Notes: generated from the letters alone by a model not told the origin. A stretch of DNA of 62,624 nt, filler included, from 7 parts of 7 records of this genome joined end to end with filler, not necessarily neighbours in it, one strand, 5' to 3'. Shown: positions 12,301-60,139, numbered from the whole stretch's first letter. Numbers and translations: made by a program.

Positions 12301-15300
12301 AGGTCAGGCGGATGGAGGCACCACCGAGGTGAGTGACGCCAGAGATGGCCATCATGCCGTCGCGGACGAGAGCGATGGGGGTCATGGAGCCCAAGTTGCT
12401 GGAGGTGGAAGTGATAGCACCGTTGTTGACGGTCACGGGCAGGGTGAAGGTGGCAGTGGTGGAGGTCACAGAGGTCAGCTCGTAGAAGCCATCGATGGAA
12501 CCGCCATTGACGGAGGCATCAGCAGAGTCCTCGAGACCAAGGGTACCGACAACAGCGTAGTCGTCACCAGCAACAAAGCCGTGGGCAAAGCTGAAGGTCA
12601 CGGTGGCAACATTGCCAGAGGCAACAGAGATGCTAGAGAAGGGCTGCACGACACCGCGGTAGCTGGTGGGCACGAAAGTGCGGGTAGTGGTGGAAGTGCG
12701 AGTCACCTGGCTGTCCTCATGGAAAGTCATGCGGACTTGCTTGCGAGTCTCGAGGCTGGAGCCAGTCTTGCGGATGGCAAAGTCGTCGTTGGTGTTGGTG
12801 GCAGTGTCAGAGAACTGCAGGGTGATGTCCTGGCTGGCACCAGAGTTCAAGTTCAGCGAGGCAGTGGTAGCAGCATCGTCACCGAGAGTCAGGGATGCGC
12901 TCTTGCCAGCGGCGCCACCAATCACAACTTCGGAGTTGGCAGTGCTCTGGACAGAGAAGATGGTGCGGCCGGCATCGAGGGTACCGAAGGAGGTGGTGGT
13001 AGTAGCAGCACCGGTGGCGGGAGAAGTGGACAGAGTGAACTCGAACTGAGAAGTGGAGCAAGTAGCGGTCAAGCAGGACTTGCCAGTGCGCACAGTGTGA
13101 GCAGCGTTCAACTTGGAGTCGATGGAAGCAAGAGCAGTGTCCTTGGTGCCAGAGCTACCAGAGATAGTGTAGGCAGCACCGTCAACAAGGTTGTGGGCAG
13201 CAGAGGTAGTGGCGAGCACGATACCGTTGGCAGAGATAGTGTAGCCGGAGATGGTCAGAGTGGCGGAGTAGTGAGAGTCAGCAGTGAGAACAGTGCCCTT
13301 GCCGGCCTGATCGTTCAGGGTCAGGTAGGTGTTGGTGTTGGTGGCAGAGCGGACCTCGACGTAGGCAGGGGTGTCACTGCCGTCGCCCTTGAGCAACACA
13401 TTCACACCATTGGTGGACTGCAGAGTGAGAGAGGGATCCTCAACACCGTCAGTGGTCATGGTGTAGCCCTGGTAGGTGCTGTCTTCCACAGAGGCAAGGC
13501 GCAGAGAGGCAGAGCTGCCCAAGTTGGAGTTGATGTGCACAGCAGTGGTGGTATGCACGTTGCTAGAGGACTGGGCGGCAGTCAGGTCGAGGATGGGGGT
13601 GTTGAAGGCACGCACATCGTTGTCGACATTGAAGCGGGTCACGGGGGTGAACACTTCGTCGTAGTTGGTGACGTAGGGCTCCCAGATCTCGATGTCAGAG
13701 CCGTCGACGAGCGAGCCGGAGTTGGAGCCGGTGTTAACAGCCAAGTTGGCAACCAGGTAGATGTTGGAGTTGGAGATGTAGTCGATTTCCTGGATGATCC
13801 AGTTGGTGCCATCGCTGTCGCGCACACGCACGTACACACCATCGGGGAAGTTGGTGGAAGTGCAGGGGGCATTGCTGCTGGACACAACGCAGGAGCTGAT
13901 CTGAGCCTGGGAGGCCATGCGGATGATCTTCTGGCCGTTCTTGTTCTCGTCGTTGAGGCGGTTGACGTTGTCGACAGTGGACAGCTTGTACCACATCTGG
14001 CGGCGGAGCTCGAAGCTGCCATCAGTGCCGGCACCACGGACGTTAGCCCAGGCGCCATCCATGTTGTTGTCGTTAAGGAAAACGGTGGCGGATTCCTTAG
14101 TGCGGTCGGCGGTGACGTGCACACCAGCACCCATGCCAGCCAAGTCAGTCAGGGTCATGCGAGCCACATCCTCAGAGAGGATCTGGGTACGGGCAGCATT
14201 CACTTGGTCAAACTGGGCACCTTCGGTACCGCTGACAAAGTGCACAAGGTTGTAGAAAGTGGTCTCGGGGATGACAGTGAAGTTGTCGGGGGTGGCATAG
14301 GCCACAGTGGTGCCACCAGGAGCAAGGGACACGCGGCCAGCGACGTCAGAGACGGAGCCACCGGCACCAGAGGCGAGGATCAAGTCACCGCCATTGTAGC
14401 CAGAGCGACCCTGCTGACCGGAGATGGTGGTAGCCAAACCAGTGGAGGAGGCGTGCTGAGGGCGGGACAGAGTGAAAGCAGCGTCGGTGTTACCCAACAC
14501 AACGGCATCGGACTTGATGTTGGAGAGGGTCAAGTCAGTGGTGGACACGGCAGAGGTGGCAGCGAAAGTGGTGGCAGAGACGGTGCCGCCAGCAGCGATG
14601 TTGGAGGTGGCAGAGAAAGAGGCAGCAGAGGCAGCGCCAGTCATCTGCAGAGTGGCACCCTTCACGAGAGGAGCATTCACGTAGCCGGTGGAATCCAAGT
14701 TGGTCACATCGGCCTGAGTGATCTGGGCGTTGGTGCTGGTGAAGGTGGTGGAGCTCAGGGAGGCAGCAACAGTGGCAGAGCCGAGGATCTCCAAGTTGGA
14801 GGCGGCGTTCAGGGTCAGCTTGTTGGAGGAGTCAGCAAGAGTCAGGGTGTTGTCGCCAGACTGGAGCAAGACGCTTCCGCTAGCACCAGTGCCAGTGTTA
14901 AGTCCACCAATGATCTGCACGCCACCGCCATTAAGGTTGCCGAGGGCAGCCTGCTGGCCACGGAGGATGGTGTTGGCACCAGTGGCACCAACGGTAGCCT
15001 GCTGGGGTCGCACGATAGTGAAGTCAGTGGTGCCGCCGAGAGTCAGGGAGTTGCTCACAGTGATACCAGTGGAGGACAGAGTGCCGGTAGTGATACCGTT
15101 GGTGACAGTGAGGGAGTCAGAGGTCAAGCCGTTGGCAACAGTGGTGCCAGTGGAGTCGATGGTGACCTTGGGGCCAGCGGAGCCGACACCAGATTGGAGA
15201 ACCACAGCACCAGCAACACCGCCATTGGCAGCGGCACCAGCAGAGATTTGCACATTACCACCGTTCAAGGCAGCGGCAGCGCCAGAGTTGGCATTCTGAC

Positions 15301-18300
15301 CGGAGATGGTGGTGGTGGAGCCAGAGAGGGTGGCCATGGGGCGAGCAATGCTGGAGGCATAGACAGTGCCAGCAACAGTCAAGTCGGAGCTGAAGGTACC
15401 GACCTGGCCGTTGAAGGTAGTGGCAGTCAAAGTGGACACACCAGCGGTGGTCAGAGTGGCAGTGGTGGAGGTCAGGGTGTTGACAGTACCGGTAGTGATG
15501 GTGGCACTAGGGGAGCTGAGGGCAGAGGTGGCAGAGAGAGTGGGAGCAGACACGGAGGTGGCAGAAGTCACGGAGGCAGAGGCAGCCAAAGTGGCGACGG
15601 AGGCAGAGGTGGCAGAGAAAGTGGTGGACTGCAGAGTAGCAGCGGCAACAGTGCTACCGAAGGTGGCAGTGGTACCACGGAGGGTGGTCACGGTACCATC
15701 GGTGATAGTGGCAGTAGCAGCAGTAAGCGAGGTGGTGGCAGCAATGGTGGCAGCGGTGGCGCTAGTGGCAGTCACAGAGCCAGAGGCCAAGTTGGTGAAG
15801 GTACCGGTGGTGGAGGAGAAAGTGGTGGCAGCGAGCACGGGGGCAGTCACAAGGTTGGAAGCCACAGTGAGCTCGTTGTTACCAGCAGACAGAATCACCT
15901 TACCGTTGGCGCCGACGGGAGTAGACCTGGTCAAACCAGCCTTGATCACAACATCACCACCATCCTTGGAGGTGCTGGGGTGAGCATAGGAATCCTGACC
16001 GGTGATGTACAAGTCGTTACCATCACTGCTAGAGTGAGAGGGGCGGGAGACGGTGAAGTCGAAGGAAGAGGAGCCGAGCTGCATACCAGCGAGCACATTG
16101 ACGGTGTTGGCAAAAGTAGACTGACCACCGACAGTGACAGCGCTACCGAAGGTGGAAGCACCAGCAACAGCCATGGTGCTAGTAGCAGTCACAGCACCAT
16201 CAACGTTCAGGGCAGAGGTCACATGGCCAGTGCTGGCGACGGTCAAACCACCATTGATGTTCAAGGTGTTACCGACGAGGGCGGTGGTGGCGGCGCTACC
16301 GATAGTGGGAGCGGTCACGGAGGTGGAGGCAGCAAGGGTGGAAGTGCTGAGGGCGGTGGTGGTCAGAGCAGAGGAAGAGATGGTGGAAGACTGGATGGAG
16401 GTGATCAGACCGAGAGGGCTGGTCACGCTGGTGGTACCAGAGAGAGTGGTGAACACAGCAGTGGTAGAGTTGACATAGTCGAAGTAACCGTTGGTAGAGT
16501 CGACATAGGTGGCATCGATATTGGTGGCGGTGACCTTGGTCAGGGAGGCGGCAGGAGAGGAGAAAGTGGCAGCAGTGACTTGGCCAGAGAAGGTGGCAGT
16601 GGGGGCAGTGACAGCACCGTCCACATCAACAGCGAACTTCTTGGTAGCATCAGTGGAGCCAGTGACGGACAGAGTCTCAGAGGCAAGAGACTTACCGAAC
16701 ACGCGGCCGGCAGTGGCGGTGATGTTGCCAGTGCTCACAAACACACCATTGGTGGCATTGACAGTGCCAGATCGCACAAGCACGGAGCCAGTGGTGAGAT
16801 CAACATTGCCGGTGGAAACAACCATGTTGCCAGTGGAGATGGTGGCAGAGTCGGCAGTCACAGACTTGAGGGTGGTGGAGCCGGTAGTGGTCAGGGTAGT
16901 GAAGGTACCGGTAGAAGCGGTGAGAGCACCATCAGAAGCAACAGCCAAAGAGCCGATCGCAAGGGAGCCAGCAGAGAGGGCACCAGAGACAGCAGCAGAG
17001 GTAGAGCTGAAAGTGGAGGCAGAGAGAGCGCCAGTGACACCCACAGTGTGAGTGCCAGCATTGACCTTGAAGAACTGGTCAGAGCCAACGTTGATGGCGC
17101 CACCGACGTTCAAGGTGGTGGACACGTTGTGGGCAGCGTTGGAGAGAGCATAGCCAGAGGCAACCTGGAACACGTTCTGGCCACCGACACGGAAGTTCTG
17201 GGTGTCTTGGCTCTTGACAACGTCGTAGTAGACGGAGCCATCGTTGGAGTACGAGTTCGAGTTGAAGCTGGTAGCAGTGGCGTTGCCGGTGACAGTGATG
17301 GGGGCAAGGAATTGCACAGAGGAGGAGGACACAACGATCTTGGAGGTGTCAGTGGTGGTGCTAGTGCCAACAGCGATGCGGATGCTCTTGGAGCCATCAG
17401 TGGTTTCCAAGCGCATGTCAGAGACAGTGGTCACCTTGGGGGTGGTCACGGAGGTGGTGGCGGTGGCAGTGGTGAGAGCGGCAGTGGGGGCAATGAGCGC
17501 AGTGTCAGAGGACACGGTACCCTTGACAATGAGAGTCTTGGAGTTAGTGTCGAGAGTGAAGTTGCCGGAGCTGACGATGGAGGTGGCCAGGATGTCATCA
17601 GTGACAGTCAGGTCGTTGGTGACGGTCATGGTGGCAGCGGTCACAGTGTCGGCAGTGATGTCGTTCTCGACCACAAGGTCGCTAGCAGTCAGGTCGGTCA
17701 CGGTGGCATCAGGGATGGAAACAGTGCTACCAGTGGCAGCCTTGACAACAAGGTTGCCTGCATGATAGGGAGGAGAGAGATAAAGGAAGAAGTCAGAATG
17801 AATCAAGAAAGAAAAAATCAGAAAAGGAACGGGTCAATCCAGTTTTAGACACGGTTCTAACATGACGCAGCCAGATAAAGAAAGGGATTGCAGAACAGGT
17901 GAAAATAGTTGAACAATGATGAGAAGAGAAGTTAAAACGCACCAGAGGCGGATTGCACAACGGGCACAGTAACCTGAGCACCGACAACCAAGTCAGAGTC
18001 GATGTTAGCGGTATCAGCGGTCAACTCCCCAGAGGCAACGAGGGTTTCGGCAGTGAGCTTGTTGTCAACATTGACAGCGGAAGCAAGCACGCTGATGGTG
18101 TTGGAGCCTGCATAAGATAGAGAAGCAACAGAAGAATGAGACGGGTGCCATGCGACAATAATTTGGAATCGGGCGGAACAGGACAGGATGGCGAGGGAGG
18201 AGAATCATCAAACGAGGTGCAAAAAAGCGAGAATGAACATGAAGATAGTAAGAGTAGACATACCATCAGAGCCAGCCTGGATGGTGAGAGTGGAGGCAGA

Positions 18301-20834
18301 CTGGACCACGGGAGAGGTCACAGAGTTGCGGAAAGTACCAGCAGTGAAGTCACCGGTACCGGTAGTGAGGCTGGAGGAAACAAGTTTGCCTACATTCACT
18401 TGGTTGGCGGTAATCGAGACGTCTTGAGTACCTGTGACATTCAAAAACAGGAGCAGGGAGAGAGAACAATGAGCATGCACGGCTGGCGAACAGAATGGGG
18501 AGGTTCAACCTGGTCAACCTGGTACGAATGGAACATTGGAAATGCAAAAGAAGAAACAATGAACATGAAGAGACTGGGAATGAGCAATGCGCCCACCGGA
18601 ATCCGAGGAGCAAAAGCAACAACGGAAGCAGGAGTAACGCTTACCGTCAGAACCGGCGCGGATGGCGAGGGCCTCGGGAGAGGTGATACTGCGGACGAGC
18701 ACAGTGTCAGACGAGGTGGAGTTCACAGAGAGGGTGGTGGCAGACAAAGACTTGATGGAGCCAGAGGGAGAGCTGATGCTGGGAAGGAAGGCAGTGGCGG
18801 CCTCAACAGTCAAGGACTGAGTGCCGTCGCCAGCGCGGAGAGTCAGGGTCTTGCCAGAGGCAGACTTGACAATGTCAGAGGTTAAAGTCTCGGCGGTCAC
18901 AGACTCAGCGTTGGCAGTGCCGAGAGAGACAGAGGTGGCATCGGTCAGGTCCAAAGAACCAGTCACGGCAACGCTACCAGCGAGGTTGAGGGTATCAGTG
19001 GCTGAAGTTAGAAAGAAAAGGGGGAAATGAGATTAGAATGAGCGAGGTGCGGTGACCAGAGTGGATTAGAGGGAAGAGGGCGCGTTTTCACGTTGGGAGA
19101 ATGCAAACAAACATAAAATGATCAGAATGAAAGCAACTTTACCTTGGATCTTGATGCTACCAGCAGAGTTGATGGCAGTGGTAGAGAGAGCACCAGCGGT
19201 GAAGGAAGTGGCCTGGGCGGAGGTGAAGGTGGCAGCGGCAGCAGTAAGAGAGTCGGACACAACAACCTCACCAGTAAGGGTCAGGGTGTCAGTGGCTGCA
19301 TTGCAAGAGAGGAGGCAAGTGAATATCAACACAGAAAAAAGGAGAAAAGGTCGATAAACAAATACAAGATCAAGCCAACTTCTGAAACTTACGTTGGATC
19401 TTGATGCTGCCAGCAGAGTTGATGGCAGTAGTGGTCAGAGTACCAGCGGTAAGAGCGGAAGCTTGAGCGGAGGTGAAGGTAGCAGAGGCGGCGTTAAGAG
19501 AACCAGTGACGGAGACAGCTCCGGTCATGGCGATCGCATCGGTTTCTGGAAAAGGAGGGACGAAAGAGGGATATATAAGTAAGAATCTAGAGGGTAAAGC
19601 CGCTGCAAGTATCGGAAATGAAAGCAGGTGCTCACAAGATGCAGGAGCAAGGATGAGAAACAGAGGGGGGAAACGTCGAAGGAGGAATTATTAAGAGAAA
19701 GAAGACATACGGGAACCGGCGCGGATAGAAAGAGCACCAGTAGAACCAATGAGACCAGTGGTGACATTGGTGCTAGCCTTCATAACATCGAAAGAAGCAG
19801 AGGAACCAGAGGAACCAAGCAAGTTGGCATCCACAAGGACCTCGCGCTTCGATGACAGAGTCAAGGTATCTGAAAGGGATTAAAATCAATGAAGAAATGG
19901 CGATTGAAGAAAATCAGAAAGGAGTCGAGTCAACCAGAATGGACGCGGCAAACTAGCAAGAGATGAAGAGGGAAAGACAAGAAAACAGCTAAGACACTTA
20001 CTTCCGGTAGTAGAAAGAGTGGGAGAGCTCACAGCTGTGGCAGTCACGGTACCAGTGACAGAGAGCGCTGCGATGGAGGAAGATGGAATTTACAAATGAG
20101 TTTCCTACGAATTAGCGCGCCAATTTGAAAATGGAGGCAACTTACGGGAGGCCACAGTGACAGAGCTGCCAGTGGACTGCAAGAGCAGCTGCCCTTCGGC
20201 AGTCAGTTGCAAGTCGGCAGATGAAGAGAGCTCGAGAGTGTTACTCGAAGACAGCTGGAGGGCCTCGCTCGAAGAGATAGAGAGAGTGCCTTCGGAGTTA
20301 GAAAGGCTGTCTGTTGACACAGAGGGCACTTGCATTTCCTTCTCAGTGGAAGTTACAAGAGTACCCTTAACAGTGAGATCGCCATTGACAGTCACTGACT
20401 GGATGAAAGTGGAGGCACCAGTGACGGACATGGTCTCAGAGACAATAAGAGTCTCGGCTGCCATGCTTGTTACAGTGACTGACTCGGTACTGAAGATAGC
20501 GTCAGTAGAATCGATCTCGATCTGCCCAGTAGAGAACGTTAGTGGTAAGAAAAGTTGATTGTAAGGATTATTGATATACCAATTTAGATCCTGAATGAAG
20601 GAGCTGGAAGGCACCGTCTTTTTGGATGGTCAGTGAGTATTCATCGCTATCAGTCTTAAGATCAATGGTGGCGGTGTCAGTGCCTTCGATGGTGAGAGAA
20701 TCACCCAGATTCGGAAGTTGGGTAACAGCAAAAATTGCGAGAATGAACGCAACAATAATGAACATCCATGAGATAACGGTGTTCACAACGAATCCACTAT
20801 AGGAAACGGTCCGTGGAGCTGAGCGGACGTCCAT
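397..20834 (-). CDS. Giant (~6,178 aa) 14-exon Ser/Thr/Ala-rich surface protein with N-terminal TM anchor and phage-fibre-like repeats
   Basis: Hand-spliced exons: 20834-20580, 20521-20146, 20067-20002, 19869-19711, 19545-19393, 19295-19143, 19001-18645, 18431-18264, 18107-17943, 17757-2394, 2227-2071, 1879-1554, 1410-982, 805-397. All introns are GT..AG with compatible phases. Total 18,537 nt, ATG to TAA. Exon 1 has a hydrophobic segment (VISWMFIIVAFILAIFAV). Confidence 0.88.
19143..19545 (-). repeat. Tandemly duplicated 153-nt phase 1-1 exons (exons 5 and 6 of the giant gene)
   Basis: Exons 19393-19545 and 19143-19295 have equal length and both encode ..ATFTSAQA...TAG.L.TTAINSAGSIKIQ. Confidence 0.85.
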
Positions 20835-22480: not shown

Positions 22481-22580
22481 NNNNNNNNNNNNNNNNNNNN
22501 NNNNNNNNNNNNNNNNNNNNNNNNTTAATTAATTAANNNNNNNNNNNNNNNNNNNNNNNNNNNNNNNNNNNNNNNNNNNN
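22481..22580. other. Artificial contig spacer
   Basis: 44 N + TTAATTAATTAA (stops in all six frames) + 44 N. Confidence 0.97.
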
Positions 22581-34148: not shown

Positions 34149-34248
34149 NNNNNNNNNNNNNNNNNNNNNNNNNNNNNNNNNNNNNNNNNNNNTTAATTAA
34201 TTAANNNNNNNNNNNNNNNNNNNNNNNNNNNNNNNNNNNNNNNNNNNN
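34149..34248. other. Artificial contig spacer
   Basis: Same N/TTAATTAATTAA/N block. Confidence 0.97.
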
Positions 34249-45840: not shown

Positions 45841-45940
45841 NNNNNNNNNNNNNNNNNNNNNNNNNNNNNNNNNNNNNNNNNNNNTTAATTAATTAANNNN
45901 NNNNNNNNNNNNNNNNNNNNNNNNNNNNNNNNNNNNNNNN
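45841..45940. other. Artificial contig spacer
   Basis: Same N/TTAATTAATTAA/N block. Confidence 0.97.
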
Positions 45941-48979: not shown

Positions 48980-49079
48980 NNNNNNNNNNNNNNNNNNNNN
49001 NNNNNNNNNNNNNNNNNNNNNNNTTAATTAATTAANNNNNNNNNNNNNNNNNNNNNNNNNNNNNNNNNNNNNNNNNNNN
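48980..49079. other. Artificial contig spacer
   Basis: Same N/TTAATTAATTAA/N block. Confidence 0.97.
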
Positions 49080-51455: not shown

Positions 51456-51555
51456 NNNNNNNNNNNNNNNNNNNNNNNNNNNNNNNNNNNNNNNNNNNNT
51501 TAATTAATTAANNNNNNNNNNNNNNNNNNNNNNNNNNNNNNNNNNNNNNNNNNNN
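51456..51555. other. Artificial contig spacer
   Basis: Same N/TTAATTAATTAA/N block. Confidence 0.97.
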
Positions 51556-51556
51556 G

Positions 51557-52807
51557 GAATATTGGGGTGACAGCGGCGCCTGGGGTACGGACACGGTTGA
51601 GTTTGGCGTCGGCATTGCTGCGGCCGATGTTACGGTCAGCCAGGGCAATAATGGCAACGACCTGATCCTGGCCATCGCTGGAACGAATGACAAGGTAACG
51701 CTGCAGGCGACCGTGAACAGCGGAGAAAACCGGATCGATCAGGTCCGCTTCGCCGATGGTACGATCTGGAACCACGCCCAGCTCATGGCTCTGTCGCAGC
51801 AGCCGACGGCAGGCGATGACGTTATCTATGGTTATGAAGGCGCCGACACGATGTTCGGCGGTACCGGTGACGATCAACTCTTTGGCGGATCCGGCGACGA
51901 TATCCTGTCGGGTGACGCAGGCCATGACAGCCTGTCAGGCGGCAATGGAACCGATATTGCCAAATTTGCCGGGGTCCAAGCGTCCTACTCCCTCGTCACG
52001 GCTTCGGGATCGATCGCAGTCGTCGACAACAGTCCAACCGAGGATGGCGATGACGGCATCGACACGTTGACTGGCATTGAAAAGGCGCAGTTCAAGGGTG
52101 GAGCTCAGGTGTCTCTGGCAGCGCCGATCGTGCTTGACCTTGATGGAGATGGCATCGATCTTGTTGCGCGCAAACAGTCCCATGCCCGGTTCGACTGGAA
52201 TGGCGATGGGTTTGCCGATCGAACAGGTTGGGTCGGCGAAGGCGATGGACTGCTTTTCTACGACCGCGATGGCAATGGCACGACTTCCGGCGCGAACGAG
52301 CTTTCGTTCGTCGAGGACAAGTCCGGCGCTAAATCGGACCTTGATGGCTTGTCGGCATTCGATACTAACGGCGATGGCCGCTTCGATACCCATGACGACG
52401 AGTGGTCGAAATTCGGGATCTGGCAGGATGCCGATGGAGACGGCGTTGCTGCCTCAGATGAAATGTCGTCCATGGCGGACGTTGGGATCCGGTCGATCTC
52501 CCTTGCAGGGCAGGCAACAGCGCAGGCATGGTCGTGGGATGACAATATCATCCTCAACCATGGAGGGTTCACCTGGGCGGATGGCCGGACTGGGTCTCTT
52601 GGCGACGTCGCGATGAACTATTTCGAAGCCAAGGTCGAGGCCCATCTACGAGAGCCCCAGCTTTTCGCCAGTCAATTGGTGGAGGCAATAGGCCAATTCG
52701 GCAGCAGTTCGGCCGCAGAGTTCAGTATCGAAGAGTTGGCGAAATCAGGAACGTTTGACACTGCGGCGGGCCATGTTCGCTTTGCAAGTAGCGGAAATTT
52801 TGCCTGA
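51557..52807 (+). CDS. RTX/hemolysin-type calcium-binding protein, C-terminal part (type I secreted)
   Basis: Frame open from the contig edge. GGxGxD nonapeptides (GGTGDD, GGSGDD, GGNGTD), IDQVRFADGTIW, and a PIVLDLDGDG..FDWNGDG..TGWVG..DGLL domain. Confidence 0.9.
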   Translation, partial: EYWGDSGAWGTDTVEFGVGIAAADVTVSQGNNGNDLILAIAGTNDKVTLQATVNSGENRIDQVRFADGTIWNHAQLMALSQQPTAGDDVIYGYEGADTMFGGTGDDQLFGGSGDDILSGDAGHDSLSGGNGTDIAKFAGVQASYSLVTASGSIAVVDNSPTEDGDDGIDTLTGIEKAQFKGGAQVSLAAPIVLDLDGDGIDLVARKQSHARFDWNGDGFADRTGWVGEGDGLLFYDRDGNGTTSGANELSFVEDKSGAKSDLDGLSAFDTNGDGRFDTHDDEWSKFGIWQDADGDGVAASDEMSSMADVGIRSISLAGQATAQAWSWDDNIILNHGGFTWADGRTGSLGDVAMNYFEAKVEAHLREPQLFASQLVEAIGQFGSSSAAEFSIEELAKSGTFDTAAGHVRFASSGNFA

Positions 52808-52825
52808 TTTGCGTGATATAGAAAG

Positions 52826-52852
52826 ACCCCGCAGGCCATTGGCTTGCGGGGT
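52826..52852. terminator. Stem-loop, probable intrinsic terminator
   Basis: ACCCCGCAGGCC-ATT-GGCTTGCGGGGT, 18 nt after the RTX stop codon. Confidence 0.7.
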
Positions 52853-52893
52853 TCTGTGTTCATATTGCTATGGTAAGGTTGTTATACTGACAT

Positions 52894-52908
52894 TGGTTGC
52901 GGGAGCCG
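52894..52908 (-). other. Candidate att site: copy of a tRNA-Met 3' end
   Basis: TGGTTGCGGGAGCCG reverse-complements to ..CTCCCGCAACCA, a tRNA-fMet-like acceptor end. The rest of a tRNA is absent. Confidence 0.5.
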
Positions 52909-53072
52909 AGTTCCACCGCTGTAGAACTCGGTTCCGGCTGACAGATCATCATGTCGTGTCCCTTTTGGATCCGTGTAACTCTACTCGTGGCGTATCACCA
53001 TTGCTGCGCTAAACGATTGCTCAAGCAGAAAATAAATCACTGCTTTATCCAGTAGGCACGAAATATAAAAAA

Positions 53073-53087
53073 CGACCATTTTCGCCG
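53073..53087 (+). promoter_or_regulatory. DriD-like box upstream of the WYL gene
   Basis: CGAC-cattttc-GCCG, one mismatch to CGAC-N7-GTCG, 18 nt before the ATG. Confidence 0.5.
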
Positions 53088-53105
53088 CCACTGAAACGGA
53101 AAAAA

Positions 53106-54089
53106 ATGACTCTACGAATGGCAAAGCTGGATCGTGTCATGTTGTTGATTCACGCGCTGTCCGAAAGCAACGAAGGCATGACCCTCGATGAAATGGCCGC
53201 CTATCTGGGCGTCAATCGTCGTACGGCAGAACGAATGCGAGACATCGTAGCGTTGCATTTTGACCTAGATGAGCGGCAAGATGAACGTCACAAACGATTT
53301 ATCATTCGAGACAGTCTCCGCCGGGTCTATACGCGCCCGGTCGCCGCCGAGGTCGCCGCCTTGCAGGCCGAAGTGCTGGCGCATCAGGGTGCGGGGCGCG
53401 ACGTGCGCGCCGCGCCGCTGGCCGCACTGCTTGCCAAGGTGCGCGGCGCGCTCGACGACCGGGAAAAGCGGCGCATGGACCCGGACCTGGATGCGCTGAC
53501 CCGGGCGCAGCAGATGATCGCCGCGCCCGGCCCGCGCGCGCCAGTTCCCCTCGGCCTGTTAGAAGTGATGCAGGGCGCGATCATGGCCGGACAATGCGTG
53601 GAATTCGACTATGCCGCCCATCCGCGCGCCGAACCGAAATGGCGCCGGGTCATTCCCTATGGCCTGGTGCATGGGCCGCTCAGCTATCTGATCGGCAAGC
53701 TGCCCGACCGGGAACCGACCTATTTCCGCCTCGACCGCATCATCGATGCACGGATTAGCGACCGGCCCGGCTGTGCGCCGGAGGATTGGGACATCAGCGC
53801 CTGGCTGTCGACCAGCTTCGGCGTCTGGCGTGAAGACCCTTATGACATCAGGTTGCGGATATTGCCTGAAGGGGTCGACCGGGCGCGCGGCTGGCGCTTC
53901 CACGCGACGCAAAGCGTGGAGGAATTGCCTGATGGTGGCCTGTGCATCCGTTTCCGCGCGGGCGGCCTGCGCGAACTGACCGACCATCTGTTCAGTTGGG
54001 CGGGCGAACTGGTGATCGAGGAGCCTGCCGCACTGATCACCATGATGCGCGAGCGGGCGGCGCTGGCAGCGGGAATGGTCGCCCCCTGA
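53106..54089 (+). CDS. driD: HTH-WYL-WCX transcriptional regulator, DriD homologue
   Basis: 327 aa. EGMTLDEMAAYLGVNRRTAERMRD, APGPR, FRLDRI, SFGVW and WRFHATQ..DG...IRFRAGGLREL..HLFSW align, from my recall, with Caulobacter DriD along its length. Confidence 0.88.
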   Translation: MTLRMAKLDRVMLLIHALSESNEGMTLDEMAAYLGVNRRTAERMRDIVALHFDLDERQDERHKRFIIRDSLRRVYTRPVAAEVAALQAEVLAHQGAGRDVRAAPLAALLAKVRGALDDREKRRMDPDLDALTRAQQMIAAPGPRAPVPLGLLEVMQGAIMAGQCVEFDYAAHPRAEPKWRRVIPYGLVHGPLSYLIGKLPDREPTYFRLDRIIDARISDRPGCAPEDWDISAWLSTSFGVWREDPYDIRLRILPEGVDRARGWRFHATQSVEELPDGGLCIRFRAGGLRELTDHLFSWAGELVIEEPAALITMMRERAALAAGMVAP

Positions 54090-54145
54090 TCCGATCGCTC
54101 GGGACGGCATCCGGCCGGTTGCTAAAGCGGCCGGATGCTAGCGGG

Positions 54146-54709
54146 TTAGTTCCCCTTGCGATAGTGACCAGCGGCCAGTTCATAGGCGTCGTCGGGTTCT
54201 TCCCCTTGCCTGATGAGCGCGATGATGTCGTCGCGGCATTGACTGACTTGCTTATCGAAGGCCGTGCCATGCACCTTGGCATAATCCCACATCATCTGGA
54301 TCGCTTCCTTCTCCGTCCGTTTCACGCGCGGAGCGATCATCTTCTTCCAGATTTCGGCCTGCTCCTGAAAGGCGTCCTCGACGCTTGACCAGTCAAAGGC
54401 ATAGGCCTGCGCGCACAGCGTTTCAAAGTCGCCCTCAAAGGCGAAGCCCGGTCGTTTGCTGGCCTTGTTCACGCCCAGCGCTGCCAGCACCGGAAGATGT
54501 CTGGGCTCGGTGAATTCCCGACGGATCACATCCAATCGACGCCCGACACTACGGTGATGACAGCGCGATACATAGTCATTGTCGGGGTGCAGCCGGCGCG
54601 CGGTATCGGCGATATTCTCATAATTGTCAGTCACACCGTGCTGGGCCAGTTCCACCAGCATGGGGTAGAAAAGGATCGCCAGTTCAACATCGGTCTTGGT
54701 CAGGGGCAT
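54146..54709 (-). CDS. Hypothetical 187-aa protein with a winged-helix-like domain resembling those fused to restriction-type nucleases
   Basis: RBS AAGGAG before the ATG. Motif Y..L..LA....Y..IA..R.VGRRL..I..LP.L..L.VN..PG..F..FDW. Domain call is inference. Confidence 0.7.
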   Translation of the reverse strand: MPLTKTDVELAILFYPMLVELAQHGVTDNYENIADTARRLHPDNDYVSRCHHRSVGRRLDVIRREFTEPRHLPVLAALGVNKASKRPGFAFEGDFETLCAQAYAFDWSSVEDAFQEQAEIWKKMIAPRVKRTEKEAIQMMWDYAKVHGTAFDKQVSQCRDDIIALIRQGEEPDDAYELAAGHYRKGN

Positions 54710-54786
54710 GCTGTCTCCTTTGCGGTTCGGGCTGTGTCATCACGATAAAAAATATTTCAGAATAAAGGCTGAATCGCTCGGGTGAT

Positions 54787-55296
54787 TCAGTCCAGATCCC
54801 AGTCCCGGTCGGCAACCACTTCCGCCAGCGTCCATATGACGCGCGGATTGGGGCCGCCCGCGCCCCGAAAGCTGGGGTAGACGGTGAAATGCGTGCGAAA
54901 ACCGGGCTTGAGGTCCAGCGTGAGCAGGTCAAGGCTCTCCGCGATCGGTACGCAGCGCCCGATCGGATCGTCAGGCAACGCGCATTCGTAGAGCCGCCCC
55001 TTCAGCACGGCGCTTTCCAGCGCCTCGCTTCCCCGGTTCTGCACCCATCCCCCGACGCTGTAGAGTTGCTGCGCCGCGCCCATGTCGGACTGTGCCTCTT
55101 CCCGGTCCAGCCGCCACTCGACCGCCGGGTCGCCGGGCGGCAGTTGATGTTCGCTCATCCAGTCCTGCGCCGCCATTGCAGCCAGCCACAGCATCAGCGC
55201 ATAGACCGCCCAGCGGAAGGGCGCGACCTGCATCATCAGGGCAAAGGCGATGCCCGCACCGATCCAGCCGAGCATATCATTGTCCCTGTCGTTCAC
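54787..55296 (-). CDS. Hypothetical membrane protein (two TM helices + beta-rich exported domain)
   Basis: GTG start after a GGAGA RBS. Hydrophobic stretches LGWIGAGIAFALMM and WAVYALMLWLAAMAA. C-terminal GWVQNRG..L.G.LYEC..C..LKPG. Confidence 0.7.
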   Translation of the reverse strand: MNDRDNDMLGWIGAGIAFALMMQVAPFRWAVYALMLWLAAMAAQDWMSEHQLPPGDPAVEWRLDREEAQSDMGAAQQLYSVGGWVQNRGSEALESAVLKGRLYECALPDDPIGRCVPIAESLDLLTLDLKPGFRTHFTVYPSFRGAGGPNPRVIWTLAEVVADRDWDLD

Positions 55297-55342
55297 ATCG
55301 TCTCCCACATGGTTCCCGTGGGAAAGGCATGCTGCGTCGATG

Positions 55343-55357
55343 CGACAGAAGCGGACG
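55343..55357 (-). promoter_or_regulatory. DriD-like box upstream of the membrane-protein gene
   Basis: Plus strand CGAC-agaagcg-GACG, 46 nt upstream of the GTG. Confidence 0.6.
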
Positions 55358-55367
55358 TATCCTTGCG

Positions 55368-57036
55368 TCAGGCCATGCCGTCCGAGCAAAAGCCCAACCG
55401 TCCCCGTTCCGTCCCGCGCGAATCGCGCTCCGCCAGCAGCCAGTCGTACAGAATCGCGGGACGCGCCTCGCCCAGCAGCCGCGCGCGATGCGCCACCACG
55501 GCGAAATCGCCGGGCGTCAGCCCTTGCGCCAGCGGTTCGGGCATTACCCTGTTGAAATAGCGCACGAACAATGCCCCGCCTGCTGTCGCGGCAGGCTTTG
55601 GAAGGAGATACGCAGGGTGAAGCGCCGCTGCGTCGCCGGGTCCATCCGGTCGATCAGGTTGGTCGTCGCGATGAAGGGCGCGCGCAATGCCTCCATGCTT
55701 CGCAGCATTTCATTGACCATGCCGCTTTCCCAACTGAGCGTCGCGCCCTGTCGATCGAACAGGAAACTGTCCGCTTCGTCGAGCAGCAGCAGCGTCCCCG
55801 CTTCGCCGCAACGGCGGAAGGCGGCGCTGATGCGCGCTTCCGTCTCACCCACATAGGGGGACAGGAGGTCGCGGGCGCGCACCGCCTCCACATCAATCGC
55901 CAGCCGTGCGCCAAGGTGGCGGGCATAGGCCGACTTACCGGTGCCCGAAGGGCCGGACAGCAGGAGGCTCCAACCGTGTTCGGGTGCGCAGGATAGCCGC
56001 TGGGCCAGCGCTTCCAGATCCGTATCGGCATGGGACAAGGCCGGATCATAAGGACCGGTCGGCCCGGTTTCAGAGGGCAGATGCTTGCCCAGAGCCGTGA
56101 GGATGCTTTCCCCCGCGCGCTGGGCGGCGTCATGCCGAGCAACATTTTGAGATGCGCCAGCCGTTCACTCCGAAGCGGCTCCCCGCCTTCCTCATCCATT
56201 GCCCCAGCGATGACCGCCTGCCAGCCGAACCGGTCTGCAAGCGCCCGCGCAAATTCGCTCTTGCCGGTGCCGGGCGCACAATGCAGCAACAGGCTGACCC
56301 CCTGTCCCGCCCGCGGGGCGCCATCTAGCAGGTCTAGCGCCAGATCGCGCAGCGGCCCCAGATGCGCGAAATCATCCCATTGCAAAGTCGATGGCGGCGC
56401 GACCGGCATCAGCAGCGCTGACAGGCGATCCGGGTCACGGTCCTGCGCCCGCGCAATCCGCTTGAGCAGGCGGCCTGCATTGAAATCGCCATCACCCGCA
56501 TCCTCGATCAGCCCGGACTGCAACAACCGACTGCCCGGTTCCAACCGGTTTTCGATGTCGATCGCCGAAACATCGCCTAGTAGCGCCAGGATCGGTACGG
56601 TCAGGGGGTGACCGCCCATCGGGACGGACTGCGCCAAAGCGCGCCAGCTTTCAAACAGGGCATTGCGCGCGAACAGCGCCAGCAAAGCGCCATCGCGCGC
56701 GTCCAGCCTCAGGCAATCCGCCAGCCAGATGATGCGGGCATCCAGTTCGGTCGGCGCGGGCGCTGCGCCCGGTGGCTGTGCCAGGGTCCGCAGGAGCGCC
56801 GGATATTCGGCCGGGTTGTCGGGGGGCGCCCCCTCGTCCGGATCGATGCCCATCAGCGCGCTGTGCTCCACAAGGAAACGGAGCAAATCCGGCCCGGCGC
56901 AGCTTAGCTCCTGGTCAGAAAGACGATGGGTGAGACTGGAAAAGGCATGGCGCAGATGCGCGCCTTCCTGCGGAGCGAGGCCCAGGGAGGGCGGACCGGC
57001 GCGGCGCCGGCGGCGGAGTTGAAAGGGTATAGTCAT
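55368..57036 (-). pseudogene. Disrupted double-AAA+ ATPase
   Basis: Split into three out-of-frame pieces. Piece 1: N-domain + Walker A HCAPGTGKS, breaking near 56135 with the first Walker B/SRH missing. Piece 2: linker + SGPSGTGKS, LLLLDEADS, ATTN..MDPATQRRF. Piece 3: after a shift at a G-run near 55575, LTPGDF..RLGF. Confidence 0.82.
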
Positions 57037-57059
57037 GCCGCCCTTAAGCGGCATGGCTA

Positions 57060-57074
57060 CGTCAGATATGGTCG
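57060..57074 (-). promoter_or_regulatory. DriD-like box upstream of the AAA ATPase
   Basis: Plus strand CGTC-agatatg-GTCG, 23 nt upstream of ATG 57036. Confidence 0.6.
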
Positions 57075-57078
57075 TGTA

Positions 57079-58032
57079 TTAAGGCTGGACGGTGGGCGGA
57101 GGAGGATTATCGTCAGGTGTTGGCCCAGATGAACCCACGCGCGCTGCAAAGGCGGCGATCCGTGCCTCCCCTTTGCCCGCAGCGTTGCGGTAAATGTCGT
57201 CAGGCAAATAGTGGAATTTCCCGCTGCCGATCAGCCAGAGCGCGCGGTCAAACGCACGCGGCCAGATATCTGCGTCATTGGCACAGCGGATCATTTCGAG
57301 GAACGTGCCCTTCTCGTTGGTCTCTCCATGAAGAGCCCCAATAATGCGCATCGTGAACGTATCCGGCTTCACAAAAGGCAGCAGGCCCATATCCTTGAGA
57401 AAATTGACCGTAATGGCCTCCCCCATCAGGGTAAGCTTGGCCTTACCGCGCCGATTGAAAATGGTTTCGGCAAAGGCCCACATCCGTTCACCCTGCACCG
57501 CGCCGCGGGTCTGTTCGCCGATCTGCTCGCCAACCCACGCCGCGGGCGTGGGATAAAGCGCTTCCAGACCGGTAAGCCATTCCAGTCCCTGCGCGAAGCC
57601 CTTGATGCTCCGCTGCCAGACAACACCATCCTTGCGCGCGGTCGAGATACGGATGGGTTCGGCCAATTCACGGACTGCCATCTGCAACGTCTCTCCCCGG
57701 CCAAGGCGCGCTACAATCGCGCTGAGTCGGCAATCTGTACCGATGATGGCATTGGCAATGGTGGCGCGGATGATGGGTGACACGATCGTGGCATAGCTGC
57801 TGAAATTGGGCAGGTTGCTGATGAACATGCGATAAACCGCGATCCAGCCGCCCAGCACCGGCGTATCTTCGACATGCAACCGAACGACGTCGGCGACGCT
57901 TTTGGGGTGATGAACCGTTCCGTTGATCTCCAATGTCGCGGGCACATAGTCGCCATAGGTTTCGACATAGAGCGTTTCGAGAAAGGCATTCGCTTCGCGC
58001 CAAATGATCGAACCTTGTGTCATATGCTTCAC
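57079..58032 (-). CDS. Hypothetical 317-aa protein with HhH-GPD DNA-glycosylase-like C-terminal motifs
   Basis: MGEAITVNFLKDMG..FVKPDTFTMRI (HhH + PD motif) and AFDRALWLIGSG. Own RBS (AGAGGA) and AT-rich upstream region. Confidence 0.65.
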   Translation of the reverse strand: MKHMTQGSIIWREANAFLETLYVETYGDYVPATLEINGTVHHPKSVADVVRLHVEDTPVLGGWIAVYRMFISNLPNFSSYATIVSPIIRATIANAIIGTDCRLSAIVARLGRGETLQMAVRELAEPIRISTARKDGVVWQRSIKGFAQGLEWLTGLEALYPTPAAWVGEQIGEQTRGAVQGERMWAFAETIFNRRGKAKLTLMGEAITVNFLKDMGLLPFVKPDTFTMRIIGALHGETNEKGTFLEMIRCANDADIWPRAFDRALWLIGSGKFHYLPDDIYRNAAGKGEARIAAFAARVGSSGPTPDDNPPPPTVQP

Positions 58033-58119
58033 ATTCCTCTTATTGCGCGGATACTTTTCAATGCTAATAATTGATTGAAAAAAAGATAATATTTCGATCT
58101 CCTTTTCAGGAGAGTGTGA

Positions 58120-59589
58120 TTAAGCGCCCTCCCCCGCTAGCGCGCGAGCGACGACCATCATCGCTTCGGTATCGCGCGCGCAATAGCGACGCAGCCCCTG
58201 TTCCAGCAGCGCCCGGCGCGCAGGCATGGTGTCGGGGGCAATCGCTTCCCAATAGGCCTGTTGCGCCTGCCCGCCATCCTTCACCTCCAGCGCAAGATAG
58301 CTCATCTGCGGCGCGATGGTCGGCAACACCGCCTTGATCGACCAGCTTCCGCGCTGATCGCGATGATACCAATGGTCGCGTGCCACCGGCAGAAGGTCGA
58401 CGACCCGCGCCGCCAATGCATGCAGCCCCGGCGCCAGATTGGGGAAATCGGCGGCCAATTCGCGGATGCGGGCTTTTTCGAAACTGGCATACCAGGCGAT
58501 GACAGCGCCGTCCCCGGGGAGGTCCAACAGCGCCAGCGCGCACGCCCGCCGAGGGTCCGTACCGTCCATCTGGAGAAATTCCACATGGTCAACCCGGCCA
58601 TCGGCACCTTCCACATGAGCGGAAAACTGAAAGGGCACCTGTCGCCAGGGTCCACACCCCGTCCAGCGCGGAATCGCCTCGCTCACCGTCTCGAAATCCA
58701 GCCAGATGCGAGGATAGGCCCAGTCCGCCATCGCCGCCCGCGCGGCGGCGGCATCATGCCAGGGTTCGCCGCAGATTGTCACGCTCTGGATACGCCGGTG
58801 CAACGCATTGGTCAGCAGGTCTGGCGGCACCTGTGTCAGGTCATCATGCCCGCGCTGCATCAGGGCCTTGCCCCCGCCCCGGGGCAGCAAGTCCACCGGC
58901 CATTCGGGCGCGGGCGGGCGGATGGCCGCGCAATGGGCCTGAAAGGCGCAGGCATAGGGGCTGTTGCAATGCACGCCCATCGCCTGATCCGGCATGTCGC
59001 CGGCCAGCATGGCGCGAATGTCCGACACCAGCGCCGAGCGCCCTGCCATGATCGGCGCAACGTCCGCCAATATCTCGCTATCCATGAACAGCCCGTCCAG
59101 TCGACCATTTTCGGACAGACGGAATTGCGGGTCGAGATGACGCACGGCAGCGCTGCCGATCGGCAGGCCAGCGCCCTGCGCCACCCAGATCTGGGTCGCA
59201 AGGTCGGCCATCTGCTCGGGCTTTGCCTTGGTGGAGGATTTGACCTCCGCCATATGCCAGCGACCATCTCCGCGTGGCTCCAATATGTCGCAGCGCACCA
59301 GCACATCGTCGTGCACGAAGGTCGCTTCATAAATGGGAGCATCATGGCCCGATGCCAGCAGTTCGGCCGTGGTCCGCACCGCCGCCGCCAGGTTCGGCTC
59401 CGCCTCTACCATCACCCCGCCCGCGCTCTGGCGACAGGCTTCCTCGCCCACCGCATGGCCCGATGCATAGCGCGCCTGCGCACCGACATCCTCTTGCGCC
59501 AGCTCGGGCCGGTGCGTGGCCAGCCACAGCTTGCGCGAGCATTGTTCATAGGCGGCGATACGGGATTTGGAGAGGGAATGATGGGTCAT
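58120..59589 (-). CDS. DUF2779-type protein: Cas4-like PD-(D/E)xK nuclease + RNase H-fold exonuclease-like domain
   Basis: LSKSR..YEQC, YEATF, RCDIL, AEVKSST, HCNSPYACAFQAHC (1+3 Cys). Then WLDFET, QVPFQFS, DLLP, SWSIKAVLP, YCARDT. RBS AAGGAG. Confidence 0.88.
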   Translation of the reverse strand: MTHHSLSKSRIAAYEQCSRKLWLATHRPELAQEDVGAQARYASGHAVGEEACRQSAGGVMVEAEPNLAAAVRTTAELLASGHDAPIYEATFVHDDVLVRCDILEPRGDGRWHMAEVKSSTKAKPEQMADLATQIWVAQGAGLPIGSAAVRHLDPQFRLSENGRLDGLFMDSEILADVAPIMAGRSALVSDIRAMLAGDMPDQAMGVHCNSPYACAFQAHCAAIRPPAPEWPVDLLPRGGGKALMQRGHDDLTQVPPDLLTNALHRRIQSVTICGEPWHDAAAARAAMADWAYPRIWLDFETVSEAIPRWTGCGPWRQVPFQFSAHVEGADGRVDHVEFLQMDGTDPRRACALALLDLPGDGAVIAWYASFEKARIRELAADFPNLAPGLHALAARVVDLLPVARDHWYHRDQRGSWSIKAVLPTIAPQMSYLALEVKDGGQAQQAYWEAIAPDTMPARRALLEQGLRRYCARDTEAMMVVARALAGEGA

Positions 59590-59636
59590 GCGAACTCCTT
59601 AATGCAGCGGCGTTAAGGGTCAGTATCGATGCGATA

Positions 59637-59653
59637 ACGACAGAAACGGTCGT
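59637..59653 (-). promoter_or_regulatory. Perfect DriD-like palindrome upstream of the DUF2779 nuclease
   Basis: ACGAC-agaaacg-GTCGT. On the minus strand it is followed 9 nt later by a -10-like GATACT, then the RBS and ATG. Confidence 0.7.
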
Positions 59654-59682
59654 GCGCACCTATATACGCGGCGTAAAGGAGG

Positions 59683-60039
59683 ATGCTGATTCATCCTGCG
59701 GGCAATTTCCTCACGATGAGGACCATCCAAAATGACCCCGTTCTTAAACCCGGGGCCCTGCGCTGGGCCGCGCAGATGCGGTCGATCACAGCAAAAAAGG
59801 AAAATAGCGTCAAAAGGGCCATCGACGGCTGGCGGAAGCGCCATTGCACCGGATCGCGCCCGATCTCGATTGGGACGATCATCGACTGTTGAAGGCGGCG
59901 AACCAGATCTCGTGGGGTTTCCGCACGCTTTTCAACCAGCACGATGCCGTCGCTCTCCTCCGCAAAGACGACGATGACCGCTATTGGCGCCAGGTGCTTA
60001 CCTACGGCATTGAGCATAACCTTCAGGCCGTTCTCGACG
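59683..60039 (+). pseudogene. Possible frameshifted fragment of an SF2 helicase gene, cut by the contig end
   Basis: Two overlapping frames. The second reads GFRTLFNQ..YWRQVLTYGIEHNLQAVLD, which I recall as an internal segment of defence-associated helicases. Confidence 0.35.
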
Positions 60040-60139
60040 NNNNNNNNNNNNNNNNNNNNNNNNNNNNNNNNNNNNNNNNNNNNTTAATTAATTAANNNNN
60101 NNNNNNNNNNNNNNNNNNNNNNNNNNNNNNNNNNNNNNN
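60040..60139. other. Artificial contig spacer
   Basis: Same N/TTAATTAATTAA/N block. Confidence 0.97.

Follow-up and report, generated by a model that had tools for sequence, protein, structure and literature searches.

Among the regulators in which a WYL domain senses single-stranded DNA (ssDNA), DriD of Caulobacter crescentus (PDB entries 8tp8, 9pfv, 9pga and 9pfq) occupies the -35 position of promoters that lack a -35 element, at a fixed distance from the -10 element (PMC13004042). DriD recognises the consensus ATACGAC-N7-GTCGTAT with the core ACGAC-N7-GTCGT (PMC10853764), and its site at didA reads ATACGTCCGTTTCTGGCGCA (PMC9186387). The box at Caulobacter driD drives the divergent CCNA_03891/CCNA_01149 operon and not driD itself (PMC13004042). 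Statements on published systems, here and below, are taken from excerpts of the respective papers. The present work concerns a related locus at positions 53073-59653 of a 62.6-kb stretch of DNA (the window), which encodes a DriD-like WYL regulator together with a DUF2779 protein, a small membrane protein and the remains of a double-AAA+ ATPase, each of the latter three preceded by a strong DriD box. With fair confidence, the 8.5-kb contig carrying this locus (window 51556-60039) is regarded as an accessory, probably horizontally acquired DriD-type regulon, most likely serving an SOS-independent response to ssDNA or DNA damage.

Comparable regulators have been described. PafBC of mycobacteria and SiwR of M. 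smegmatis are likewise ssDNA-sensing WYL activators of the damage response, acting at promoters without a normal -35 element; PafBC differs in being a heterodimer, in its sigma adaptation and in its promoter motif, and the similarity of the window regulator to it is limited to an E-value of 8e-05 (PDB 7p5x). DdaA of Moraxellaceae/Acinetobacter is a WYL activator with the related box CGWCA-N5-TGWCG, which switches on damage-response genes, the division inhibitor AciT and defence genes (PMC12392091, PMC13010146). DdaA represents a separate WYL clade and replaces the SOS response genome-wide in Moraxellaceae (PMC12392091), whereas the predicted regulon of the window is local. CapW and BrxR share with the window regulator the winged helix-turn-helix (wHTH), WYL and WCX domains, ssDNA sensing, as proposed here, and a location in accessory islands. 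However, they are repressors situated beside CBASS or BREX, while among six proteins of the window PADLOC recognised no named system, and the boxes display the geometry of activated promoters.

The closest match is to Caulobacter DriD itself, which shares with the window regulator the domain order, the length of 327 aa, the recognition helix, the box and its -35 placement, and which also has a small membrane protein among its best targets. In contrast to the dispersed targets of Caulobacter DriD, the predicted targets of the window are clustered beside the regulator. Moreover, in the window there is no divergent box-driven operon at driD, other residues replace K202 and R204 in the ssDNA pocket, no box is found at recA in the reference genome introduced below, and the regulator is accessory, occurring at an identity of at least 50% in 16 of 151 Sphingobium genomes. 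The circuit as such, in which a WYL activator senses ssDNA and acts from a box at -35, is known; the cargo and the compact accessory form in Sphingobium are new. A literature search, the scope of which excluded the supplements of the DriD papers, yielded no publication in which DUF2779 or sphingomonads are connected with DriD or another WYL regulator.

The regulator and its predicted binding sites

Residues 3-317 of the regulator align to C. crescentus DriD (8tp8) with an E-value of 4.5e-58 in phmmer, 9pfq being matched as well, and Pfam assigns a WCX (2.8e-12) and a WYL domain (9.7e-11). The identity to Caulobacter-type DriDs amounts to 36-41%, with about 39% to the homologue at L060. In Caulobacter DriD, the bases are read by R37, E40 and R41, and the phosphates are contacted by R36, T38, R43 and K62 of the wing (PMC10853764). 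All seven residues are identical in the window regulator, in which the neighbouring wing residue T61 is replaced by histidine, and they hardly vary among 15 aligned homologues; for the six contact residues in the recognition helix, a single E40D exchange is the sole deviation in the 15 sequences. The designation "DriD-like WYL regulator" of the initial annotation therefore holds, and by its sequence the protein is a true full-length member of the DriD family.

The identity of these residues accounts for the agreement of the boxes with the published DriD site. The three strong boxes match both the didA site and the consensus, and the box of the membrane-protein gene differs from the didA site at only 2 of 17 positions. 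The initial annotation had named a CGAC/GTCG pseudo-palindrome as the DriD site, and the boxes indeed correspond to the experimentally defined one.

Genome-wide searches were performed in Sphingobium limneticum DSM 25076 (5.1 Mb; G001), which served as a stand-in genome and in which the regulator is the sole DriD homologue found. Its 42-kb contig C34 is 100% identical to the window contig, except for one insertion in G001. The loose pattern of the initial annotation is not enriched in this genome (145 matches versus 226 for the reversed control), so that tighter patterns and a weight matrix were employed. The pattern ACGNCCNNNTNNGNCG matches the window four times (53072+, 55343-, 57060- and 59638-) against 0.37 matches expected, a number reached by 1 of 100 shuffles, and the tight pattern ACGWCCNNNTCTGNCG has only three exact matches in the 5.1 Mb of G001, every one of them in the present locus.

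The 23-nt weight matrix was trained on 43 distinct boxes, all from relatives outside Sphingobium. It assigns 22 to 29 bits to the boxes of the DUF2779, AAA and membrane-protein genes (Table 1), and the best other site in the 62.6 kb scores 9.3 bits. All four motif strings named in the initial annotation are present at the positions it gave, among which three are real boxes; the fourth, in front of driD, is doubtful and no better than chance, as it trails two unrelated sites scoring 9.3 and 9.1 bits. In the counterpart locus of S. naphthae, the DUF2779 box is identical, the membrane-protein box reaches 33.4 bits, the AAA box has decayed to 15.3 bits and the driD-proximal site scores 8.3 bits.

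Outside the locus, the degenerate 17-mer RCGWCCRNWTYTGDCGY with up to one mismatch is not enriched in G001 (50 matches versus 45 in the control). Among the 30 of these 50 sites that were examined there is no promoter-like site outside the locus, the best one (19.1 bits) lying within an open frame and without a -10 element. A further DriD-like site of 16.9 bits was noticed at L109:148 (about position 53253 of G001 contig C14), with AAAGAT at +11..+16. It is situated inside an open frame without an upstream stop and is probably not a promoter.

Table 1. Coordinates of the locus, its boxes and neighbouring features in the 62.6-kb window
Feature	Position	Strand	Basis or remark
Spacers between contigs (N / TTAATTAATTAA / N)	22481-22580, 34149-34248, 45841-45940, 48980-49079, 51456-51555, 60040-60139		
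C-terminal piece of RTX-repeat protein	51713-52807	+	first open reading frame of the contig
Weak DriD-like box before driD, doubtful	53072..53088	+	8.6 bits
driD-like gene, 327 aa: wHTH, three-helix bundle, WYL, WCX	53106..54089	+	Pfam, PDB 8tp8
187-aa protein, regulon membership uncertain	54146..54709	-	3' of the membrane-protein gene
Small membrane protein, 169 aa from GTG 55296, predicted DriD target	54787..55296	-	frame conserved in S. naphthae
DriD box of membrane-protein gene (ACGTCCGCTTCTGTCGC)	55342..55358	-	29.0 bits, strongest
Pseudogene of double-AAA+ ATPase	55400..57036	-	three-frame translation, comparison with S. naphthae
DriD box of AAA gene (ACGACCATATCTGACGT)	57059..57075	-	26.3 bits
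314-aa protein, probably HhH DNA-glycosylase-like, regulon membership uncertain	57079..58023	-	between DUF2779 and AAA genes
DUF2779 protein, 489 aa: Cas4-like PD-(D/E)XK N-terminus and RNase-H-like C-terminus, predicted DriD target	58120..59589	-	PF11074
DriD box of DUF2779 gene (ACGACCGTTTCTGTCGT)	59637..59653	-	22.3 bits

Promoter geometry and predicted targets

All three strong boxes point at their gene in the orientation of didA and CCNA_03891, with a -10-like hexamer at +10/+11..+16 and no -35 element. The underlying rule, cAxxxT at +11..+16, was obtained from a by-eye line-up of the promoters printed in PMC13004042 and those of the relatives' loci. Downstream of the DUF2779 box, GATACT at +10..+15 is followed by the ribosome-binding site AAGGAG and an ATG at +48. 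The membrane-protein box is followed by CATGCC at +11..+16 and a GTG start at +46, and the AAA box by CTTAAG and a second ATG (57036) at +23, which would give an apparently leaderless transcript. Many of the box-driven genes of relatives begin at +22..+25 and are likewise consistent with leaderless transcription. In their layout the strong boxes have the geometry of activator promoters, with transcription starts predicted from sequence at about 59614 for the DUF2779 gene, about 55319 for the membrane-protein gene and 57036 for the AAA gene.

Between the 17-mer and the start codon there are 47 nt for the DUF2779 gene, 45 nt (GTG 55296) or 66 nt (ATG 55275) for the membrane-protein gene, 22 nt (second ATG) or 4 nt (first ATG) for the AAA gene and 17 nt for driD; the initial annotation had given 18-48 nt. 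The driD-proximal site points toward driD, with the ATG at +18, in a geometry unlike that of the three strong boxes. Among 54 relatives, 45 have a box no more than 130 nt from driD, and each of these boxes points away from the gene, none toward it. With its chance-level score and this opposite orientation, the box that the initial annotation placed before the WYL gene is not supported as an autoregulatory site.

In five Sphingobium loci (L163-L165, L167 and L168), the DriD of which is 63-64% identical to that of the window, CATGGT or CATAGT lies downstream of the DUF2779 box, and an ATG at +22..+24 opens a short reading frame. This frame occupies about 20-110 nt after the box and apparently overlaps at its end with the start of DUF2779 (ATGA). 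This short frame may encode a leaderless upstream peptide; the window has no such frame behind its DUF2779 box.

The DUF2779 gene is intact and matches PF11074 with an E-value of 3.1e-37 (128.1 bits, cut-off 23.3). Its N-terminal region is matched weakly by Pfam Cas_Cas4 (5e-04) and by the Cas4 model of PADLOC (6.4e-07), and D...ExK and cysteine motifs are visible by eye in the translation. Read by its domains, DUF2779 combines a Cas4-like PD-(D/E)XK nuclease with an RNase-H-like domain of the 3'-5' exonuclease type (PMC3985635, PMC13621843). The same PF11074 region behind a Cas4-like region is found in the double nuclease MMSYN1_0389 of JCVI-syn3.0, a DUF2779 or solo-Cas4-like protein (PMC13621843, PMC3985635). 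The functions of the family are predicted from domains only, and in the excerpts that mention DUF2779 a link to a DriD box does not appear. The equation of DUF2779 with bapE was considered and rejected, as PF11074 was not found in any of three Caulobacterales genomes, a weak result given that the control matched nowhere; with the same limit, this is a further difference from Caulobacter.

The small membrane protein belongs to a rare family of only nine clusters with 169-aa forms. A plus-strand reading frame at 54889-55560 overlaps its gene and was discarded, since its counterpart in S. naphthae is 78% identical and frameshifted, against 93% for the minus-strand frame; this conservation identifies the minus-strand frame as the real gene. 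The AlphaFold2 model (predicted local distance difference test score, pLDDT, 77.7; the other four models were poor) displays two N-terminal transmembrane helices followed by a beta-sandwich, for which fold searches returned only generic Ig-like or beta-sandwich matches.

The AAA ATPase listed as a target in the initial annotation turned out to be a pseudogene. The N-terminal part of the protein is encoded in the segment 56115-57036, as is the Walker A motif of the first AAA+ domain (D1), a 370-bp deletion is located at about 56114-56122 and a further 1-nt indel near 55576, and the second domain (D2) follows in another frame at 55544-56038(-), where PF00004 is matched with an E-value of 1.2e-21. 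A 466-aa reading frame thus comprises the true N-terminus and the first Walker A motif and runs out of frame past the deletion. The deletion does not stem from faulty assembly, as a contig of sequencing run X12, obtained in another study, covers 54392-57437 without a single difference. The copy of S. naphthae is broken as well, at other places. Intact double-AAA+ orthologues of 677-691 aa with two P-loop domains lie beside driD at L046, L049, L174 and L175.

Cargo of related loci and the probable role of the regulon

The initial annotation had described the locus as island-borne. The window does not allow this conclusion: it strings separate contigs together, so that gene adjacency across the spacers is not real and provides no information on an island. 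The claim is supported indirectly by the patchy distribution within the genus and by the context in G001, where the side beyond the DUF2779 gene carries fragments of helicase, HipA and MobA/MobL genes, a relaxase of 1021 aa and a CHC2 zinc-finger protein, and then ordinary transport genes, the opposite side being formed by a 4524-aa RTX protein. An integrase or attachment site was not identified. Taken together, the mobile-element remnants and the occurrence in 16 of 151 genomes support an acquired, accessory cluster.

The association of the genes recurs in relatives, in line with the initial annotation. DUF2779 is present in 14 of the 151 Sphingobium genomes; it adjoins a DriD of at least 50% identity in nine of them and a truncated DriD in one more, and in two the nearest such neighbour is a different WYL gene at a distance of about 6 kb. 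A comparison of neighbours and boxes in 15 Sphingobium driD loci revealed DUF2779 orthologues (54-61% identity) next to driD in eight (L163-L169 and L177), each with a box of 15-24 bits in front of DUF2779 or of the gene just upstream. Orthologues of the membrane protein with boxes of 25-28 bits are present at L163, L164, L165 and L168, and double-AAA orthologues with a box of 28.9 bits at L174 and L175. The motif is thus kept in front of orthologues of DUF2779 and the membrane protein that share 55-64% protein identity, and the refuting outcomes named in the initial annotation for motif conservation and gene co-occurrence are not observed. In the comparison of S. limneticum with S. naphthae, protein identities amount to 95% for DriD, 94% for DUF2779 and 93% for the membrane protein.

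In other loci the boxes precede different genes, among them AddB/AddA (L174 and L046, the latter in a Sphingosinicellaceae genome) and SbcD/SbcC (L165). Further box-driven or neighbouring genes encode a metallophosphoesterase, an ADP-ribosylglycohydrolase-phosphatase, SNase, GmrSD and PIN proteins. In L049, from a metagenome-assembled genome of Rhodoblastus, eight sites of 12.9-28.5 bits, seven of them with at least 14 bits, lie within 13 kb around driD (2720-15202) among genes for DUF2779, PDDEXK_4, metallophosphoesterase, double-AAA and Fic proteins, and this clustered regulon is much larger than that of the window. At three loci of Hyphomonadaceae and Terricaulis (L063, L068 and L098) a box directly behind driD is followed, with the start at +23..+25, by a gene for a protein of about 1106 aa with a Cas4-like N-terminus.

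From the Caulobacter work we infer how the locus could operate. The 327-aa WYL protein would be a homodimeric activator of the DriD family. Its winged-helix domains, released once ssDNA occupies the WYL/WCX pocket, would bind the pseudo-palindromic box ACGWCC-N3-TCTGNCG at the -35 position, 10 nt upstream of the -10-like cAxxxT, and the bound protein would recruit RNA polymerase. The first promoter would drive the DUF2779 double nuclease and possibly the gene for a helix-hairpin-helix (HhH) glycosylase-like protein behind it. The second would drive the two-helix membrane protein with its beta-sandwich, for which an action on the envelope or on cell division may be proposed, speculatively, by analogy with DidA and AciT; the third would lead into the double-AAA+ ATPase gene, which is defunct in this lineage. 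As the trigger, ssDNA arising from DNA breaks is the most likely candidate.

Several observations weigh against this reading. The ssDNA pocket of DriD is formed by Y168, S172, R178, Y192, K202, R204 and W206 (PMC9186387), of which three of seven are identical in the window regulator (Y168, R178 and Y192), with W206 replaced by F and the exchanges S172R, K202E and R204T; positions 172, 202 and 204 vary too in 9 to 11 of 15 aligned homologues. The -10-like elements CATGCC and CTTAAG are weak, and the hexamer of the DUF2779 promoter is displaced by 1 nt. One of the three targets, the AAA gene, is dead here as judged from its sequence, and in G001 the 187-aa gene of the cluster is interrupted by an insertion sequence (IS), so that the module may be decaying. 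No site of at least 5 bits is found in 3.8 kb at the recA locus of G001, the promoter region of which contains GTTC/GAAC repeats resembling an alphaproteobacterial LexA box, and the examined 30 of 50 RCGWCCRNWTYTGDCGY sites suggest no dispersed regulon. The locus is, therefore, not a copy of the chromosome-wide response of Caulobacter. Finally, boxes precede defence genes in some relatives, namely MzaB-E and a restriction-endonuclease-like gene in L045 and PDC-S26 nucleases in L049 and L047.

The last of these points leads to the alternative that the locus is primarily an anti-phage or anti-plasmid module, in which DriD senses foreign ssDNA and induces the nuclease, the membrane protein and, ancestrally, the AAA+ protein as effectors. 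A case in point is L045 of Sphingomonas tagetis (9833-19262), where a DriD 57% identical to that of the window lies between dcm/vsr and mzaB-E (MzaB 5.7e-87, MzaC 1.3e-141, MzaE 1.3e-83), with a box of 15 bits where mzaB starts and another of 27 bits, followed by an ATG at +23, before a restriction-endonuclease-like (REase-ARP) gene. A DriD-type regulator is here apparently wired to a named defence system. L049 encodes, besides its PDC-S26 nuclease, a PDC-S24 Fic protein, the GmrSD, PIN, SNase and ADP-ribosylglycohydrolase genes adjoin other Sphingobium driD loci, and the related activator DdaA controls damage-response and anti-phage genes alike (PMC12392091). The accessory distribution and the mobile-element remnants in G001 fit a defence island as well. 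However, a PADLOC scan of six proteins of the window returned only the generic WYL, Cas3c-WYL and Cas4 models and no defence-system component, the excerpts of the literature mentioning DUF2779 give no validated defence role, and the box-driven partners that recur in relatives (AddAB, SbcCD and DUF2779) are end-processing enzymes of the repair type. Since the co-regulated genes of relatives are mostly of this DNA-end-processing kind, damage repair is placed first and defence second within the earlier proposal of a "defence or DNA-damage regulon", and a primary role in immunity is considered possible but improbable.

It is less probable still that the locus is a decaying relic, whose boxes and genes were inherited from a mobile element and are without function in this strain. 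Independent lesions of the AAA gene in the window and in S. naphthae, the decay of the AAA box in the latter, the IS in the 187-aa gene and the helicase, HipA and MobA/MobL fragments flanking the cluster in G001 would be expected of such a remnant, which is nevertheless difficult to reconcile with intact genes for DriD, DUF2779 and the membrane protein at the high identities to S. naphthae given above, and with boxes that are kept or even improved. Moreover, the stretch is present in 11 sequencing runs from seven studies, in each of which the sampled 31-letter words were found completely (share 1.00), nine of these runs possibly including the source of the present DNA.

That the WYL protein is instead a repressor of the CapW/BrxR type, its boxes being operators that silence the three genes until a ligand releases it, appears very unlikely: defence-linked WYL regulators are ssDNA-sensing repressors (PMC11662680) and the boxes overlap the promoter region, where occlusion is possible in principle, but the protein groups with DriD and not with CapW/BrxR (36-41% identity, same recognition helix), and all three boxes are asymmetric in the orientation of activated promoters and replace the missing -35 element at a fixed distance from the -10, as in the structures of DriD with RNA polymerase (PMC13004042).

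The DriD-type damage regulon favoured here identifies the DUF2779 double nuclease and the rare small membrane protein as predicted conserved targets and thereby provides a handle on the widespread DUF2779 family, for which damage- or ssDNA-inducible, driD-dependent expression would be expected. By analogy, the membrane protein may join DidA and AciT as a third membrane effector induced by damage. Caulobacter, Sphingobium, Rhodoblastus and acetic acid bacteria share one box and one recognition helix, while the regulated genes have been exchanged; owing to this constancy, DriD regulons can be predicted from sequence alone.

A more far-reaching and rather tentative idea is that DriD, its boxes and a set of swappable effectors form a mobile, self-contained "ssDNA alarm" cassette moving among alphaproteobacteria, which would serve both repair and immunity or sense conjugative ssDNA, with DUF2779 as a core damage-inducible DNA-end nuclease and the membrane protein as a new effector of division or the envelope. 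The effectors seen in such an arrangement are DUF2779, the double-AAA+ ATPase, the small membrane protein, AddAB, SbcCD, Mza and PDDEXK_4. The DUF2779 family is widespread, and it is quasi-essential in the minimal cell JCVI-syn3.0.

Neighbouring genes and contig context

Two further genes of the cluster have no box of their own in the window and do not recur in the loci of relatives. The 187-aa protein has no match in Pfam, NCBIfam or PADLOC, and its family comprises only five clusters in 5.8 billion proteins; the Protein Atlas gave only unnamed clusters for it. A terminator-like hairpin (54790-54769) is situated upstream of its gene. The IS interrupting this gene in G001 (C34:25040-26956, L010) is 1.9 kb long, has inverted ends and encodes a DDE_Tnp_1 transposase of 548 aa; its position corresponds to about 54275-54280 of the window, from which it is absent.

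The 314-aa protein has no Pfam match of its own, while Ogg-HhH is matched by 7 of 37 aligned homologues (best E-value 6.2e-06) and leads from the Protein Atlas point to glycosylase families. Its AlphaFold2 model (pLDDT 93.1) aligns best in VIA-align with Ogg of M. jannaschii (3knt; Z 12.7, root-mean-square deviation 3.8 Å over 189 residues), followed by a run of HhH glycosylases, although helical folds give a high background of Z in this program. In the family, K219-P220-D221 and D259 are nearly invariant. Because the E-value in Foldseek is only 0.05 and a Pfam match is missing, the assignment as an HhH DNA glycosylase-like protein, which is based on the model, is probable.

The contigs chained in the window vary in G+C content between 41 and 63%. 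At the left end of the present one, the RTX reading frame represents the end of a 4524-aa RTX repeat protein in G001 (C34:28430-42004), and the contig breaks on this side because of the internal repeats of the gene, copies of which are 82-86% identical. Scans of the stretch for terminators and promoters remained near background (8 versus 5.1 and 5 versus 1.9, respectively). In the metatranscriptome run X18, a 762-nt contig covers 52900-53627 with 69 differences and little else is found; it stems from the DNA or RNA of a relative and is uninformative on expression. In run X12, contigs stop at 54274 and 54392 of the window with the loose letters AGATGTGTATAAGAGACAG, which we take to be the Tn5/Nextera mosaic end and probably represent adapter carry-over. 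The last 195 bases of the contig (59845-60039) recur at 94% identity in G001 (C17:24779-24973), so a repeat probably lies behind the contig end.

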